From an uncultured Candidatus Saccharibacteria bacterium (GTDB lineage Bacteria > Patescibacteriota > Minisyncoccia > JAHIHE01 > DAOWLE01): 43,165 nt of DNA. The stretch's first letter is position 1, and every line of letters begins with the position of its first letter. The notes beneath the pieces were generated by a model. The model was not told the origin of the DNA, did not search any database, and was given only the letters and a program-made list of their open reading frames with translations. This document shows positions 2,381 through 42,996 of this stretch, in pieces. The translations under genes and the position numbers were made by a program. The DNA lies in contig CAYSEG010000008.1 in the NCBI GenBank assembly GCA_964430135.1, forward strand, positions 1-43,165, read 5' to 3'.

Positions 2381-2672
2381 GAATAATTTTCAATTTTCAA
2401 TAACCAATTTTCAATAAATTTTCAATTCACCCAGTTAAATAATTGCGGAGTAAATTTAACAGGGTAAATCAATTTTTTTAAAAAGGCAATTTGTCATTCT
2501 TAACTTGTTTCAGGATCTTCTTTGCCTCGCCGTTAAAACAAACAGTTTGCGAAACAGATAAAAGATTCTGAAATGAATTCAGAATGACAATCCATAGCTT
2601 AAAGTGCTTAAAGTTTGAAAATTGAAAATTGGGATTTGATTGAGAATTGAAAATTGAGAATTAAAAATTTTC
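2381..2672. repeat. family-C TTTTCAAT/ATTGAAAA element split by a nested insertion
   Basis: Left half 2381-2432 (aattttcaattttcaataaccaattttcaataaattttcaatt) and right half 2613-2672 (gtttgaaaattgaaaattgggatttgattgagaattgaaaattgag) match the two halves of the intact copies at 32848-32962 and 41806-41948. The 2433-2612 interior carries a different palindromic element. Confidence 0.6.
2491..2590. repeat. palindromic MITE-like element with TTGTCATTCT terminal inverted repeats, nested inside the family-C element
   Basis: TTGTCATTCTtAACTTGTTTCAGGATC (2491-2517) is the inverted repeat of GATTCTGAAATGAATTCAGAATGACAA (2564-2590). It shares the TGTCATT terminus with family A. Confidence 0.55.
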
Positions 2673-2708
2673 CAACTTAATTTTTAATTTTGAATATAAT
2701 TGCAGTAT

Positions 2709-2806
2709 CCGTTGGTTCGGTCGTCCGCGACTGAACCAGCAAGTGGAATGGTATTGGCTATTTAGAAAATTAAACCTATGGTTCAATCGGAACGATTGAA
2801 CCAACG
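2709..2806. repeat. family-B double-hairpin MITE-like element (copy B1)
   Basis: CCGTTGGTTCGGTCGTCCGCGACTGAACC ... GGTTCAATCGGAACGATTGAACCAACGG. Terminal inverted repeats CCGTTGGTT/AACCAACGG, each next to a 10-bp-stem hairpin. Homologous to copies at 19189-19296 and 30196-30308. Confidence 0.7.
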
Positions 2807-2842: not shown

Positions 2843-4363
2843 TTATTTTAATTTTCTAAATATAATTGCGATATCATCCTGATAAATTTCATCCCAATCT
2901 GGGCTTAATCTTAATACTTGAGCCAGCGCCCTATCTTTTTTAATAAGCATCCATGAGACATTATATTTTTCAAGAAGATCTTGCCAATTACTCTGAAGCA
3001 TGTTTATTTCAGTGTAATCTTTAAGAATATGGAGATCCTTATTTTTCCAATGAGCCATTCTTCCATCAATGAAAGTTTTTACTTTAGGATATTCCCAGAT
3101 TAAATAACCGCCGAAGCCATAGTCATTAAACATATTTCCTTCTTGGGGATTTTCTTTGAGAAATTCCACTGCTTTTCTTGGATATTTTGCTTGCTCCGCT
3201 AAAATCGCGGGAGAATTAATTGCTTTTATTGTTTCTTTTAAAGAAAGGAGATGAGGAATATAGATGATAGAAAGAAGCACAAGTCCGATAAATATCACTT
3301 TTGTCTTTAAAACCTCTGAAAGTATTTTTTCCGGGACGCCTTGGATACTTTCTAATAGAAAAGGGATAGTAATAATAACGAAAAGCGGAACATGACGGGC
3401 GCTTTGAAGAGCCAGCCATAGAAAAGCCATCAAAAGAACAAATTGGGTAGGATCAATTCTTGATTTTTTTAAAGCAAGAATTTCAATGATGATCAAAAGA
3501 TAAATAGCAAAAAATATTCCCTCAGTACTATGAAAATTCAAAGAGAGCCACTCAATAATAATATTTGTTCCATAGGAATCAGTAAAGGTTCTTTTAAGCT
3601 CCCAAAGAAGTTTATAGCCGTAAGGATTAATGAATGCAACCAAGAAAGAAAGGGTAGTAAATATGCATAATTTTTTCCAAGCATTTTTTGTTAAGGTTTG
3701 AGATTTTTTTATCCATTCTGTTTCTCCTTTGTTTATCAGTCCTCTAATTTTTATTCTTTCAGTAGAAATGATGATTCCTAAGGTAATAAGGCCAATGACA
3801 AAAGAGGCATGCATATTTGCCCAGAGTAAAAATAATAAAGGAAGGGCGAAAACTGTTTTTGTTTTTTCGTTTTCTTTTAGTTTTTTCACAATAATTAAAA
3901 CCAAAACTAATCCCAAAAGAGTCAGAACTTGGGGGCGAATGCCAATAAAACTCCAGGAAACAAGAACACCAAGAATTCCGATTATTATTTTACTTTCCAA
4001 AGAATTTTTTTTCCGAGTCGTTTCGCCGATTAAAAAGCCAAAAACAGCTACGATAATTAAAGCAAAGGCAATACTTAATCCCCAATATCCAAAAATACTG
4101 TAGATACCGTAGATGAGAATTTCGGTCAGCCATTCATGATCAATCCAAGCAAAATCTGGCATTGTATAAGAATACCAGTCAAGATGAGGAATAGTTTTTG
4201 TTCGCCAAATTAATTCCCCTGTTTTTAGGTGCCAGCCCAAATCAGGATCGCCGGGCGATTTAAAGCCAAACAAAAAAATTATAATCAGGCCCAAAATAAC
4301 AAAACCGTATTTAGTTATATTGTGATTTTTAAATTCGGATTGAAGAAGTTTTTCAAAATTCAT
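2843..4363 (-). CDS. polytopic membrane protein, putative GT-C-type glycosyltransferase
   Basis: 506 aa with more than 10 predicted TM helices. First loop PGDPDLGWHLKTGELIW. It sits in the same tightly packed minus-strand block as the Arn-like enzymes. Confidence 0.4.
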   Translation of the reverse strand: MNFEKLLQSEFKNHNITKYGFVILGLIIIFLFGFKSPGDPDLGWHLKTGELIWRTKTIPHLDWYSYTMPDFAWIDHEWLTEILIYGIYSIFGYWGLSIAFALIIVAVFGFLIGETTRKKNSLESKIIIGILGVLVSWSFIGIRPQVLTLLGLVLVLIIVKKLKENEKTKTVFALPLLFLLWANMHASFVIGLITLGIIISTERIKIRGLINKGETEWIKKSQTLTKNAWKKLCIFTTLSFLVAFINPYGYKLLWELKRTFTDSYGTNIIIEWLSLNFHSTEGIFFAIYLLIIIEILALKKSRIDPTQFVLLMAFLWLALQSARHVPLFVIITIPFLLESIQGVPEKILSEVLKTKVIFIGLVLLSIIYIPHLLSLKETIKAINSPAILAEQAKYPRKAVEFLKENPQEGNMFNDYGFGGYLIWEYPKVKTFIDGRMAHWKNKDLHILKDYTEINMLQSNWQDLLEKYNVSWMLIKKDRALAQVLRLSPDWDEIYQDDIAIIFRKLK

Positions 4364-16732: not shown

Positions 16733-16873
16733 ATGACCAAATCCCAAATCTCAAGCCCCAAATCCCAATTATTTTTTATTTTCGGCGTTAGCGATCCCTT
16801 GCGGGACTTATTTGGAATTTATGATTTAGAATTTGGTTGGTCATTGGTCATTGGGGTTTGGGATTTTAAACCT
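16733..16873. repeat. family-E palindromic element, copy E1 (left arm flanking the recombinase gene)
   Basis: AAATCCCAATGACCAAATCCC ... cggcgttagcgatcccttgcgggacttatttgg ... TTGGTCATTGGTCATTGGGGTTTGGGATTT. The ends are mutually inverted. The CCAAATCCCAA sub-repeat is duplicated relative to E2. Confidence 0.75.
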
Positions 16874-16927
16874 TCAGTTAGAAATTTGTCAATTTTTAAT
16901 ATAAAAGTTCAATAGTTCAATTACCTC

Positions 16928-17866
16928 TTATTTCCTTTTCCTCTGTTTTCCATGAAATGCCTGATGGATTTTCTTGAGGTGTTTATCGGTAATATGTGTA
17001 TAGATTTGAGTTGTAGTAATACTAGAATGTCCCATAAGAAGTTGAACCGAGCGAATATCTGCTCCGCCCAAAAGGAGGTCTGTTCCAAAAGCATGCCTTA
17101 ATGAGTGAGGGGTTATTTTTTTGGTAATTCCAGCGCTGGCAGCATATTTTTTAACAATTCTCTGAATACTTCTTGGCGTTAGTCTTAAAGAGGCAGTCTT
17201 ACTGGTTTTTACCGTTTTGATAAATAAAGCAGGATCAGTATCTGTTCGTTTTTCTAAGTATTTTTTGAGAGCTTCTTGAGACTCTTTTGATAAAAAAACA
17301 ATTCGCATTTTGTCTCCTTTGCCTCGAATACTGAATTCTCCTTTTTTTAAATTAATTGTTTCCCGATTTAAAGCTGTTAATTCCGAAACTCTAAGCCCGG
17401 TTGAAAAAAGCAATTCCAGAATAGCTTTATCTCTGAGTATCTGAAGATTTTCTTTATGACGCGGCTTTAATTTTTCTTTAAGAGGAGCCTCAAGAAGTTT
17501 TTCTAATTCTCTTTCTTCTAAAAATTCAATTTCGTGTTCAGGGGTTTTTCCTAATTCTACTTTTTCAGCGGCCAGGCTTTTGATGTCTATTTTTGATAAA
17601 TATTTTAAAAAACCCCTTAGAGCAATAATATGGTAATTTTGGGTAATTCTTTTTAATTTTCTGTTTTTTTCATCATGCCAGCGGTTTAAATATAGTCTGT
17701 AGTCTCTGACTTTCTTTTCTGTAATTTGCGAAGGTTTGTTTATTTTAGCCCACAAGACAAATCGTCTTAAATAATGATCATAGTTTTCAATAGTTTTTTG
17801 ACTTCGGTTTTTCTCAATTTCAAGATACTGGAGGTAGTCGGTGATAAGGGAGTTGATGGGGTTCAT
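16928..17866 (-). CDS. XerC/XerD-family tyrosine site-specific recombinase
   Basis: N-terminal core-binding region (LEIEKNRSQKTIENYDHYLRRF). C-terminal catalytic region with R (GLRVSEL), HSLRHAFGT and LLMGHSSITTTQIYTH (the Tyr nucleophile). Confidence 0.85.
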   Translation of the reverse strand: MNPINSLITDYLQYLEIEKNRSQKTIENYDHYLRRFVLWAKINKPSQITEKKVRDYRLYLNRWHDEKNRKLKRITQNYHIIALRGFLKYLSKIDIKSLAAEKVELGKTPEHEIEFLEERELEKLLEAPLKEKLKPRHKENLQILRDKAILELLFSTGLRVSELTALNRETINLKKGEFSIRGKGDKMRIVFLSKESQEALKKYLEKRTDTDPALFIKTVKTSKTASLRLTPRSIQRIVKKYAASAGITKKITPHSLRHAFGTDLLLGGADIRSVQLLMGHSSITTTQIYTHITDKHLKKIHQAFHGKQRKRK

Positions 17867-17924
17867 ATGGTTTTAATTGATTATATTATGAGTTAACTTT
17901 AGCAAATCTCCTACTTAAAGTTAA

Positions 17925-18047
17925 AAATCTTAAACCCCAGTGACCAATGATCAACCAAATCTTAAATCATAAATTCTAAATAAGTCCCGCAAGGGATCGC
18001 TAACGCCGAAAATAAAAAATAATTGGGATTTGGTCATTGGAATTTTA
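17925..18047. repeat. family-E palindromic element, copy E2 (right arm, inverted relative to E1)
   Basis: Its reverse complement aligns with E1 at about 95% identity over roughly 120 bp, through ...aattattttttattttcggcgttagcgatcccttgcgggacttattt. Confidence 0.75.
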
Positions 18048-19188: not shown

Positions 19189-19296
19189 ATTTGTTGGTTT
19201 ATATTTATTGGTTTAATCGTCCCGATTGAACCATAAGTTTAGTTTTCTTGGTAATCAAAACATTAAGGTTCAGTCGTGGACGACTGAACCAACGGA
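19189..19296. repeat. family-B double-hairpin element (copy B2)
   Basis: TTGTTGGTTtatatttattGGTTTAATCGtcccGATTGAACC ... aatcaaaacattaa GGTTCAGTCGtggaCGACTGAACCAACGG. Confidence 0.7.
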
Positions 19297-25352: not shown

Positions 25353-25429
25353 GGGGCCATTAGCTCAGTTGGTTAGAGCGCGATCCTTATAAGGTCGATG
25401 TCCCTGGTTCGAGTCCAGGATGGCCCACC
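25353..25429 (+). tRNA. tRNA-Ile with a UAU anticodon
   Basis: GGGCCAT/ATGGCCC acceptor. D-arm TAGCTCAGTTGGTTAGAGC, typical of bacterial tRNA-Ile. Anticodon stem CGATC/GGTCG with loop CTTATAA. T-arm CCTGG-TTCGAGT-CCAGG. CCA is encoded. Confidence 0.8.
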
Positions 25430-25470
25430 AAAGGTTCCGCACATAAATTATATGCGGAACTAAATTCAAA

Positions 25471-30195: not shown

Positions 30196-30308
30196 GTCAG
30201 TTCAGTCGTCCATTCTGTTAGTTCAATCGTTCACGATTGAGCTACGTGTTTAGTTTTTAGCAATCAAAACATTAAGGTTTAGTCGTGGACGACTAAACCA
30301 ACAGAGGA
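30196..30308. repeat. family-B double-hairpin element (copy B3), abutting the truncated Fic gene
   Basis: cagttcagtcgtcc (partial hairpin), GTTAGTTCAATCGttcaCGATTGAGCTAC, spacer gtttagtttttagcaatcaaaacattaa, then GGTTTAGTCGtggaCGACTAAACCAACAG. Confidence 0.7.
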
Positions 30309-32847: not shown

Positions 32848-32962
32848 AAATTTTCAATTACCAATTTTCAATTTCCAAAGTGTTTTATTTAGTTTTTTGT
32901 TTGAAAATTTAATTATTGAAAATTCATTGAAAATTGTGATTTAAAAATTGAAAATTAAATTG
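32848..32962. repeat. family-C TTTTCAAT/ATTGAAAA element (copy C2)
   Basis: aattttcaattaccaattttcaatttccaa ... tttttgtttgaaaatttaattattgaaaattcattgaaaattgtgatttaaaaattgaaaatt. Near-identical blocks occur in C3. Confidence 0.65.
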
Positions 32963-41801: not shown

Positions 41802-41805
41802 TGAA

Positions 41806-41948
41806 TAATTTTCGATTACCAATTTTCAATTTTCAACCAAACTCCAAATTCCAATTTTCAAATTGTTAATTTTATATCAGTTATTTTTTTGTTTGAAAAT
41901 TGATTCATTGAAAATTCATTAAAAATTGGGATTTGAAAATTGAAAAAT
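41806..41948. repeat. family-C TTTTCAAT/ATTGAAAA element (copy C3)
   Basis: aattttcgattaccaattttcaattttcaacc ... tttttgtttgaaaattgattcattgaaaattcattaaaaattgggatttgaaaattgaaaaatt. It ends at the femAB ATG. Confidence 0.65.
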
Positions 41949-41949
41949 T

Positions 41950-42996
41950 ATGCTGATAAAAGAAATTAAAAACAAAGATTACTGGGAAAACTTTCTTTTA
42001 TCCCAGCCAGAACCGTCTTTCCTACAATCCTGGTATTGGGGCAAGTTCCACGAATCGCTCGGCGATAAAATTTTTCGCTTGGGAATTTTTGACAACGAAG
42101 AAATTGTCGGCGCGGCTTTGATAATTAGAGTTTTGGCGCGGCGAGGATCATTCCTTTTTTGCCCTTATGGACCAATAATAAGTCAAAAGTCAAAAGTCAA
42201 AAGTCAAAAGCGTAATTCAAAATGCAGAAGTATTGAGATTTTGACAAATTATTTGAAAGATTTAGCGAGAAAAGAAAAGTGCTGTTTTCTTAGAATTAGT
42301 CCGAATTGGGAGAGAAGCGAGAAGGATATAAAAATTTTCAAGGATTTAGGATTTAGGGATGCGCCGATTCATCTTAAGCCGGAAATAACTTGGCTTTTGG
42401 ATATTAGACCGAGCGAAGATGAAATTTTGATGGGAATGCGAAAAACTACTCGGAATTTAATCAGAAGAGGATATAAAGAAAATATCCAGATTATTAAAAG
42501 CGAAAATCCGGATGATTTGGGCGAATTTTATGAAATTTATCAGAAAACCGCTAAACGGCAAAATTTTGTTCCGTTCTCCAAAGAATATTTAAAAAAAGAA
42601 TTTAGTGTTTTTGTTGGAGAAAAAAAAGTCAGTTTATTTTTCGCCAAGCATAAAGATAAACTACTGGCAGCTTCTTTTTTTATTTTTTATGGACGTCAAG
42701 GTTTTTATCATCATAGCGCTTCTTTGCCGAATACTTCTAAAATTTCAACTTCTTATCTTTTACTTTGGAAAGCAATTCAGGAAGCGAAGAAAAGAAATTG
42801 CGAAATTTTCAATTTTTGGGGTATTGCCCCGAAAAATAAACCAAAGCATCCTTGGCAAGGTTTAACTTTTTTTAAAAAAGGTTTTGGCGGTTATCAAAAA
42901 GATTTAATTCATGCCCAAGATTTGCCAATGGATAGGCGATATTGGTTAAATTGGGTGGTTGAAACTTTCCGAAGAATTAAACGAGGATATTCATAA
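41950..42996 (+). CDS. FemAB-family peptidoglycan interpeptide-bridge aminoacyltransferase
   Basis: SFLQSWYWGKF ... FLFCPYGPI ... and C-terminal ...FFKKGFGG matches the FemAB-family (PF02388) architecture as I recall it; this family is commonly annotated in CPR bacteria. Confidence 0.75.
   Translation: MLIKEIKNKDYWENFLLSQPEPSFLQSWYWGKFHESLGDKIFRLGIFDNEEIVGAALIIRVLARRGSFLFCPYGPIISQKSKVKSQKRNSKCRSIEILTNYLKDLARKEKCCFLRISPNWERSEKDIKIFKDLGFRDAPIHLKPEITWLLDIRPSEDEILMGMRKTTRNLIRRGYKENIQIIKSENPDDLGEFYEIYQKTAKRQNFVPFSKEYLKKEFSVFVGEKKVSLFFAKHKDKLLAASFFIFYGRQGFYHHSASLPNTSKISTSYLLLWKAIQEAKKRNCEIFNFWGIAPKNKPKHPWQGLTFFKKGFGGYQKDLIHAQDLPMDRRYWLNWVVETFRRIKRGYS
42178..42245. repeat. in-frame (AGTCAAA)4 heptamer array with a partner arm inside femAB
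   Basis: aagtcaaaagtcaaaagtcaaaagtcaaaag ... attgagattttgac, encoding SQKSKVKSQKRNSKCRSIEILT. Same unit as the family-D intergenic repeats. Confidence 0.55.

Follow-up and report, generated by a model that had tools for sequence, protein, structure and literature searches.

This analysis concerns a hub of small repeats between two convergent genes in a 43,165-nt contig stretch (the window, always taken at its full length) of a Patescibacteria (candidate phyla radiation) bacterium. At the centre of the hub lies a head-to-head dimer of TGTC-tagged hairpins of the repetitive extragenic palindrome (REP) type, tags outside (2491-2590, no strand assigned), which is nested in a longer palindrome built of AT-rich heptamers that we denote family C. 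We assign the dimer, as a REP-type element that is non-autonomous, to the CGTC-tagged REP superfamily, because both its arms fit the published definition of tag, stem, loop, tag-outside orientation and spacer; it is thus an element of a known kind in a phylum where this kind had not been listed. The nested arrangement is far beyond chance. Loci and contigs retrieved for comparison with the window carry designations such as L144 or L189.

REP-type repeats are among the most common non-coding repeats of bacteria, and for the CGTC/TGTC-tagged branch, we know of no mobilising enzyme and no described target rule. The present locus places this branch in the candidate phyla radiation, the genomes of which are usually regarded as small and repeat-poor, and yields several testable items, namely, a statistically strong preference for the centres of host palindromes, occupied and empty alleles of near-identical strains in public metagenomes, and a candidate partner gene, which encodes a GIY-YIG nuclease and is flanked by the repeats.

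A REP dimer inside a split palindrome

The hub is located in a 616-nt spacer between the gene for a type IV secretion system (T4SS) pilin (stop at 2226) and the convergent gene for a 506-aa protein (stop at 2843). A first-pass annotation made from the sequence alone had described a single intergenic region of about 600 bp in which a family-C element is split into halves 180 nt apart by a 100-bp element with terminal inverted repeats, with a family-B double hairpin some 40 bp further on. This description is confirmed: both C halves are present as inverted heptamer arrays at 2381-2432 and 2613-2672 (no strand assigned to either), the inner element has exact 10-nt inverted ends (TTGTCATTCT/AGAATGACAA), and family B is found 36 nt past the right C arm.

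The 29-nt arms of the inner element are 83% complementary, and it folds much better than shuffled sequences (z = -6.5 for the + strand and z = -6.9 for the - strand); the terminal 10-mer alone occurs in the window at chance frequency (5 matches with at most 1 mismatch vs 4.9 expected). Each arm starts with TGTC on its own strand (2492 on +, 2589 on -) and continues into a stem that opens with A-T and T-A pairs. The left REP (2492-2516, + strand) has the stem ATTCTTAA/TTCAGGAT, in which 7 of the 8 positions pair, including one G-T, so that this arm contains one mismatch and one wobble, and the right REP (2565-2589, - strand) has the fully paired 8/8 stem ATTCTGAA/TTCAGAAT. The loops, CTTGT and TTCAT, are 5 nt each; the tails are CTT and AAG, with a 42-nt spacer (2520-2561) between them. 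The reverse complement of the right arm matches the standard left-arm form of the family. When a REP was formally defined as TGTC plus a hairpin of 21 nt in which at least 7 of the 8 stem positions pair and the first two pairs are A-T and T-A, the only matches in the 43 kb were the two arms of the inner element; simulated windows contained 0.07 such arms on average, and a head-to-head pair appeared in none of 300 simulations.

These features are to be compared with those of the CGTC-tagged REP superfamily (Di Nocera, De Gregorio and Rocco, 2013, BMC Genomics 14:522, PMC3733652), in which the tag is CGTC, with the variants TGTC (frequent) or CCTC, the stem of 8-9 bp begins with A-T and T-A pairs, the loop comprises 4-5 nt, and the tail consists of three unpaired bases, mostly CCA. 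These REPs come mostly as head-to-head dimers with the tags outside and spacers of 20-100 bp, heterodimers being frequent; no dedicated or linked transposase was found, and the five phyla in which they were reported do not include Patescibacteria (PMC3733652). The closest match is the class with an 8-bp stem and a 5-nt loop, with which the window dimer shares the tag, stem, loop, orientation and spacer; a short tail is present as well, but it reads CTT. The likeness extends to the unlike partners within dimers, the location between convergent genes, the insertion of some dimers in palindromes and the lack of a linked tyrosine transposase. The assignment draws on folding, the definition scan, relatives and covariation.

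Target-site duplications flanking 2491-2590, a search for which the first-pass annotation had proposed, are absent (GGCAAT precedes the element and TCCATA follows it), which fits REP-type elements rather than classical miniature inverted-repeat transposable elements (MITEs). A classical MITE was therefore rejected as a candidate: the inverted ends are present, yet there is no direct duplication. In Rfam 15, only three tRNAs in the window score above threshold, with nothing meaningful in 2200-2900 at E values up to 10, and no family covers the dimers in 18 related loci. A full-text literature search with sequence strings of the element returned only unrelated primers.

Relatives in other phyla and folding of the arms

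Relatives of the dimer were collected in two scans. The first, of one genome per bacterial species with the pattern TTGTCATTCT, 60-90 nt, AGAATGACAA, detected at least 120 loci in Bacteroidota, Acidobacteriota, Chloroflexota, Verrucomicrobiota, Nitrospinota, Helicobacter and others, nearly all of which share a consensus that extends well past the 20 bases queried. The second, of metagenomes, employed the AT-rich arm form found in the window (TGTC, ATTCTGAA, a 5-nt loop, TTCAGAAT, CT) and detected at least 120 further loci. The further copies of the inner element that the first-pass annotation had called for thus exist in each of the two collections. One of the metagenomic copies, in L144, has both arms as well as the spacer motif TATCTGTTTCGCA in common with the element in the window, at 75% identity over 93 nt. 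The GC-type relatives, with tandem G-A pairs and a GAA loop (GCGAAGC core), differ from the plain 8-bp stem of CGTC REPs.

The relatives also reveal which structure is maintained. Among 56 distinct partner arms that are free of the search-pattern constraint, 38 (68%) have all five outer pairs, compared to 14% after shuffling of the partners, and at least 12 compensated stem variants were observed, such as ATGCT/AGCAT, ACCCT/AGGGT, AAGCT/AGCTT and ATTCC/GGAAT. Each arm therefore folds as a hairpin of its own. Moreover, the partner arms within one dimer often have unlike stems, which indicates that the selected structure is the arm hairpin and not only the long hairpin formed between the arms.

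For two of the retrieved loci, the surroundings were noted. In L144 (976-1446), REP dimers are found in two of the spacers that lie downstream of infC within the infC-rplT cluster, with a presumed rpmI between them; the dimer at 976-1065 is also flanked by an inverted host repeat. In other bacteria, the infC-rplT cluster forms a conserved ribosomal-protein operon with translational coupling. In the Flavobacterium contig L052 (3631-4399), a pair of tandem REP dimers lies between two matches to the Flavo-1 RNA (Rfam RF01705).

Nesting in palindromes across the family

The placement of the window dimer at the centre of another palindrome is not peculiar to this locus. When 50 nt on each side of 178 dimers were compared, with the same measurement shifted by 350-900 nt as the control, mutually complementary flanks (score of at least 12) were found in 15.7% of the dimers vs 0.4% of the controls (Fisher p = 1.4e-19). 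With flanks containing REP-like motifs removed, a score of at least 10 was reached in 24 of 109 dimers vs 2 of 420 controls (p = 9e-16). Direct flank matches of at least 3 nt occur in 1 of 184 dimers and inverted matches of at least 4 nt in 19 of 184. In many loci (L088, L070, L092, L016, L094), the host arms are unique sequence; in Acidobacteriota (L027, L011, L067, L090), the REP dimers are nested in a second repeat, with the arms CAGGCTGCGGAAAAAG/CTTTTTCCGCAGCC. About one fifth of the dimers thus form the centre of an unrelated host inverted repeat, and nesting in palindromes is a trait of the family. REP dimers inside palindromes had been noted in three species (PMC3733652), and the bias is now measured across phyla.

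The heptamer-periodic host palindromes

The host palindrome was characterized by comparison of the inverted arms, motif counts and alignment to intact copies. Its arms are inverted copies of a 7-nt periodic sequence (AATTTTC units in the left arm), the best sub-arms being complementary at 100% over 16 nt and at 84% over 25 nt. The 16-mer AATTTTCAATTTTCAA (at most 2 mismatches) has 15 matches in the window, compared to 1.45 expected, and tags three further C palindromes. Two of these are compact and insert-free: one (32849-32956) lies between the genes for ProRS and MreB and the other (41805-41950) fills the spacer before a FemAB-like gene. In the third (64-524, arms 64-119 and 476-524), the interior is a pseudogene (144-461) of a PF05635 four-helix-bundle protein with an in-frame TAA. 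None of the three has an assigned strand. Identity between the two intact copies is 82%; the halves of the split element, once joined, are co-linear with them at 65-69% identity, left aligning to left and right to right. The halves thus behave as one split palindrome, and the outcome named in the first-pass annotation as a refutation, namely that they align equally well as two independent partial copies, was not obtained.

Family C is a separate repeat family of this Patescibacteria lineage, with AT-rich units of 7-nt periodicity, and the dimer and the C palindrome are separate entities, because C palindromes without an insert (32849-32956 and 41805-41950) and dimers without C arms in other phyla both exist. 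No coding remnants were found inside the split copy (2433-2612). The heptamer-periodic palindromes host several kinds of cargo.

One such kind of cargo is genic. Both four-helix-bundle genes in this part of the window (PF05635/TIGR02436; 144-461 and 964-1320) are disabled by one stop each, a TAA at a conserved Gln in one and a TGA at a conserved Trp in the other, the latter being an intact TGG in strain L128. Both are enclosed by inverted heptamer-periodic arms, the first by C arms (64-119/476-524) and the second by arms of another type, denoted A (945-1004/1331-1365). Furthermore, a tyrosine recombinase gene (16928-17866, - strand; Phage_integrase and SAM-like domains) within 16746-18045 is flanked by two inverted 143-nt copies, 87% complementary, each of which is itself a heptamer-periodic palindrome (CCAAATC type) that encloses a core of about 60 nt; the segment could be invertible or mobile.

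Strain variation at the focal site and an empty site elsewhere

Alleles of the focal site were reached via variants of the 506-aa protein within a 90% cluster. The arrangement seen in the window is present in L004, L128-L130 and L133; the aligned L004 and L128-L130 differ by 3 single-nucleotide polymorphisms and 1 indel. In L127, L131, L132, L134 and L135, from strains that are about 96% identical, the site is occupied by an alternative allele, in which the flanks are kept up to window position 2809 on one side and from the end of the pilin terminator (2332) on the other, and the interior consists of a four-helix-bundle gene (PF05635) enclosed by two periodic arms in inverted orientation. The presence of two alleles between kept flanks implies that the 476-nt block (2333-2808, no strand assigned), which comprises the C left arm, a hairpin denoted H1, the REP dimer, the C right arm and family B, was exchanged as a cassette.

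Other palindromes of this kind vary as well. The ProRS-MreB spacer contains a C-type palindrome in the window and a zero-loop 110-nt A-type palindrome (55-nt arms) in L263 (4700-4809), despite neighbouring proteins that are at least 90% identical, and in L262, the sequence left of the FemAB-side C palindrome (41805-41950) is unrelated, so that synteny breaks at the palindrome. In this lineage, the heptamer-periodic intergenic palindromes thus change much more quickly than the genes on either side. Such fast turnover matters for strain typing and for assembly, given that the examined contigs with this region end at the window start or within about 2 kb of it, in a repeat-rich pilin cluster. Specifically, L001-L003 end no more than about 100 nt from the window start and the longest contigs, L128 and L129, reach only about 1.4-1.9 kb further; that these ends fall in a pilin/four-helix-bundle cluster full of periodic palindromes suggests that repeats or strain variation interrupted the assembly.

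The first-pass annotation had proposed a comparison with empty sites in related strains. At the focal site, no empty C palindrome was found; at a paralogous site, the comparison is positive. In L189, a TGTC dimer of the subtype seen in the window is centred in a heptamer-periodic C-type palindrome between the genes for an extracytoplasmic function (ECF) sigma factor and a DUF5667 protein, and its right REP arm is identical to that of the window at 27 of 28 positions. Three other loci, L256, L258 and L259, which carry a 98% identical neighbour protein and show 96-98% DNA identity to L189 over 6.4 kb, have a C-type palindrome at this site without the 113-nt dimer-containing segment. L189 comes from the same study series and co-occurs with the window contig in two assemblies; its GC content is higher and it has no B element, and it may represent another organism than that of the window. 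In the L189 palindrome (3440-3690), AATTTTT units make up the left arm and AGAAATT units the right one; each heptamer would give a G-U pair in the + strand RNA and a C-A mismatch on the other strand, and the flanking genes are on the - strand.

How could the nested arrangement have arisen?

The scenario that we favour, and consider fairly likely to be correct, is that a REP dimer integrated at the dyad of a C palindrome already in place, or was retained or lost there at a later time, with the block being exchanged subsequently. Under this scenario, the dimer, i.e. two TGTC hairpins around the 42-nt spacer, would move as single-stranded DNA into the exposed tip of the extruded hairpin, without generating a target-site duplication, and the whole block would then behave as a swappable intergenic cassette in the population. 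Such integration at the hairpin tip is suggested by the lack of target duplication, the arm-level hairpins and the palindrome-centre bias, and we infer that the direction of change was insertion rather than deletion. The claim of the first-pass annotation that the elements are or were mobile is supported by the further copies of the inner element, the behaviour of the C halves as one split palindrome, the strain alleles at the focal site, the palindromes swapped between strains at other orthologous sites, and the occupied/empty pair.

Several observations weigh against integration at the dyad or against the identity of the integrated element. The alternative allele at the focal site is a wholesale replacement, with no empty C palindrome found. 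The palindrome arms of L189 and L256 are only about 72% identical, compared to 96-98% for the flanks, so that the two alleles differ by more than a simple insertion or deletion. Similar junctions are seen in the composites of the window and of L189, which would also fit a composite spreading as one unit. The single-strand mode of integration is suggested by anatomy only. The tail consensus of the superfamily is CCA, in contrast to CTT in the window and mostly CT in the relatives. There is a single TGTC dimer in the 43-kb window, to which this count applies, and neither the window nor the related Patescibacteria-like loci that were inspected, L189 among them, encode a candidate transposase or nuclease; a Pfam scan of the ten largest open reading frames (ORFs) of the window also revealed no Y1 transposase. 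Because it is the sole copy in 43 kb, its left arm is decaying and no candidate enzyme is found nearby, the window dimer looks like an orphan.

An alternative, unlikely in our view, is that C arms and TGTC dimer make up one element, which spread as a single long palindromic unit with no separate nested insertion at this locus. The window and L189 composites indeed align over the full length, with matching junctions on the left (AAGGCAATT followed by TGTCA vs AAGACAACC followed by TGTCA) and on the right (TGACAA followed by TCCATAGCTTA vs TGACAA followed by TTTGTAGTTTA), in addition to the nearly identical right REP arms (27/28). However, the window contains two dimer-free C palindromes and a further one is found at the orthologue of the L189 site, dimers without C arms are present in hundreds of loci from other phyla, and the H1 hairpin is extra in the window copy and absent in L189. 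One old nesting event followed by the spread of the composite is possible, and would be compatible with integration of the dimer into a pre-existing palindrome.

Conversely, the outer palindrome could have grown around the dimer, via hairpin-templated repair or template switching that copies one flank onto the other and extends outward. Complementary flanks that abut the dimer ends in L016 (...GCTTTTTT, dimer, AAAAAAGC...), L092 and L017, as well as the common inverted flank matches of 4-6 nt, speak for such growth. We nevertheless find this route quite improbable: insert-free C palindromes exist, one of them orthologous and, if the L256 allele is ancestral, older than the dimer; the host arms in Acidobacteriota are a separate repeat (CAGGCTGCGGAAAAAG); the complementary flanks are often 5-25 nt off the dimer (L088, L070); and the copying of a unique flank leaves the heptamer periodicity of the C arms unexplained.

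Another possibility is that all these elements are static structural or regulatory hairpins (terminators, stabilisers of mRNA 3' ends or outward promoters) that are repeated and adjacent to one another but not mobile. The location between convergent genes is typical of REPs thought to act on transcripts (PMC3733652), the C arms give outward-facing promoter-like matches (TTGAAA-N17-GAAAAT), and the B copies lie 36-100 nt past stop codons, in one orientation. The promoter-like matches in the C arms are, however, no more common than in shuffled sequences, and the terminator scan scored no site within C, B or the dimer; the elements vary greatly between strains in which the flanking genes are at least 90-98% identical; and the same dimer family is found in unrelated contexts across phyla. 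Static hairpins therefore appear very improbable as the full account, and a secondary role in RNA is compatible with mobility. Finally, the C halves could be independent partial copies that came to lie on either side of the inner element by chance, as might be imagined given the permissive alignment of low-complexity periodic arms and the joined identity of just 65-69%. This appears extremely improbable, considering the left-left and right-right alignment that includes the shared TGAATAATTTTC start and GTTTGAAAATTG restart, the same architecture at 64-524 (gene inside) and in L189 (dimer inside), and the more than 10-fold over-representation of the motif in the window, where it occurs as inverted pairs.

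A possible enzyme and comparison with known systems

Integration of the dimer into a palindrome raises the question of the enzyme involved. A small GIY-YIG protein (PF01541) is encoded in 9 of 240 REP-bearing loci. REP arms are located within 120 nt of both gene ends for 5 of these 9 genes vs 8 of 2674 other ORFs of 80-150 aa in the same loci, a comparison that involves few genes and loci chosen for containing REPs. By eye, GIY-YIG genes are sandwiched between dimers or arm arrays in L015, L097, L150 and L237; the segments in which such genes lie between TGTC/CGTC-type REP dimers or arrays are L015 3345-3891, L097 1080-1760, L150 4027-4510, L237 100-720 and L160 800-1480. A tentative idea, to which we would give clearly less than an even chance, is that the TGTC/CGTC REP dimers are mobilised by small stand-alone GIY-YIG nucleases and integrate preferentially at the tips of extruded host palindromes, and that, in parallel, the heptamer-periodic palindromes of this Patescibacteria lineage are exchangeable intergenic cassettes for multiple cargoes. 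The association between GIY-YIG genes and REPs is put forward as a hypothesis, not as a result; a literature search found no paper linking GIY-YIG with REP elements or with REP-associated tyrosine transposases (RAYTs). If this idea is true, it would supply the dedicated enzyme reported missing for the CGTC REP superfamily, account for a nearly uniform 25-nt hairpin in organisms as diverse as Helicobacter, Acidobacteriota and Patescibacteria, and imply that the centres of the heptamer-periodic palindromes take REP dimers, four-helix-bundle genes and the core of about 60 nt next to the tyrosine recombinase.

The best known analogues are REPINs with their RAYTs (Bertels and Rainey, 2011) and the bacterial interspersed mosaic elements (BIMEs) of E. 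coli, in which, likewise, two inverted REP hairpins around a spacer form the dispersed unit, each REP folds alone or the pair folds as one long hairpin, and there is no target-site duplication. REPINs differ by the GTAG tag and the RAYT (Y1 HUH) gene flanked by REPs, as opposed to the TGTC tag here and a flanked GIY-YIG gene in some of the REP-bearing loci. Membership of the window dimer in the REPIN/RAYT system is ruled out by the TGTC tag and the lack of ORFs with an HUH/Y motif in the REP-bearing loci: none with a RAYT-like HUH/Y motif was detected in about 1.5 Mb (an estimate) of loci carrying TGTC REPs. The arrangement in which a nuclease gene is flanked by repeats resembles the REPtron, with the difference that the nuclease belongs to GIY-YIG, a superfamily other than that of RAYT. 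Atypical structures beside some Bacteroidetes RAYT-like genes are mentioned in a later survey of HUH enzymes, with no tie to CGTC REPs.

In the 23S rRNA intervening sequences (PF05635/TIGR02436), as in the cassettes at 64-524 and 945-1365 and in the L131 allele, a four-helix-bundle ORF lies between long inverted arms; the window cassettes differ in being intergenic and in that the arms are heptamer arrays. A tie of the inner element itself to four-helix-bundle genes or 23S intervening sequences was rejected, as a tblastn search with the two sequences from the window detected none near 120 dimers. Insertion into small palindromes has other precedents: IS1397, ISKpn1 and IS110-family elements insert at a defined place in REP or palindromic-unit hairpins, which results in nested intergenic repeats. 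Elements of the IS1397 type are autonomous insertion sequences with a transposase, in contrast to the non-coding REP dimer of about 100 bp in a heptamer-periodic palindrome described here.

H1, family B and other features of the window

The remaining parts of the variable block are H1 and family B. The hairpin H1 (ATTCACCCAGTTAAAT/ATTTAACAGGGTAAAT; 2425-2469, no strand assigned), with 16-nt arms that are 88% complementary, is extra material in the loop of the C palindrome; no other copy was found anywhere in the sequence data compared, and the L189 composite has a gap in its place. Family B (2709-2807, - strand), delineated by two further window copies, motif counts and folding, is a lineage-specific double hairpin that consists of two self-complementary hairpins with 10-bp stems (GGTTCRRTCG...CGAYTGAACC), about 40 nt apart, with an outer CCGTTGG/CCAACGG pairing. 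The other window copies are at about 19200-19296 and about 30197-30305, and the motif has 4 matches vs 0.16 expected. On the - strand, the focal copy lies 36 nt past the stop of the 506-aa gene, and the 19200 copy likewise follows its upstream gene. Further copies were found only in this lineage (L128 15461-15541 and L134 4617). Family B was ruled out as a CGTC- or GTAG-tagged REP, given that its stem opens with G-G and there is no consistent tag.

Two features mark the edges of the variable block. A stem-loop at 2291-2332 (no strand assigned), with 18-nt arms that are 89% complementary, a 6-nt loop and flanking A and T runs, is located just past the T4SS-pilin gene (stop at 2226) and is probably the terminator of that gene; it is kept in both alleles (L131, L132) and forms one edge of the block. 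On the other side, a solo periodic half-arm AATTTGGATTTTGGAATAATT (2809-2842, no strand assigned) is also kept in both alleles and, in the alternative allele, runs on into the left arm of the four-helix-bundle cassette.

The window contig, which recurs in several public assemblies, has a GC content of 31-33%, and its genes include three T4SS-pilin paralogues and genes for a DUF5654 protein, PNPase and an RseP-like protease. Homologues of the 506-aa protein are labelled by their sources as Patescibacteria, Staskawiczbacteria, Dojkabacteria or Kazan. The window also contains a predicted tRNA-Ile with the anticodon TAT (25354-25430), an uncommon bacterial way to read AUA.

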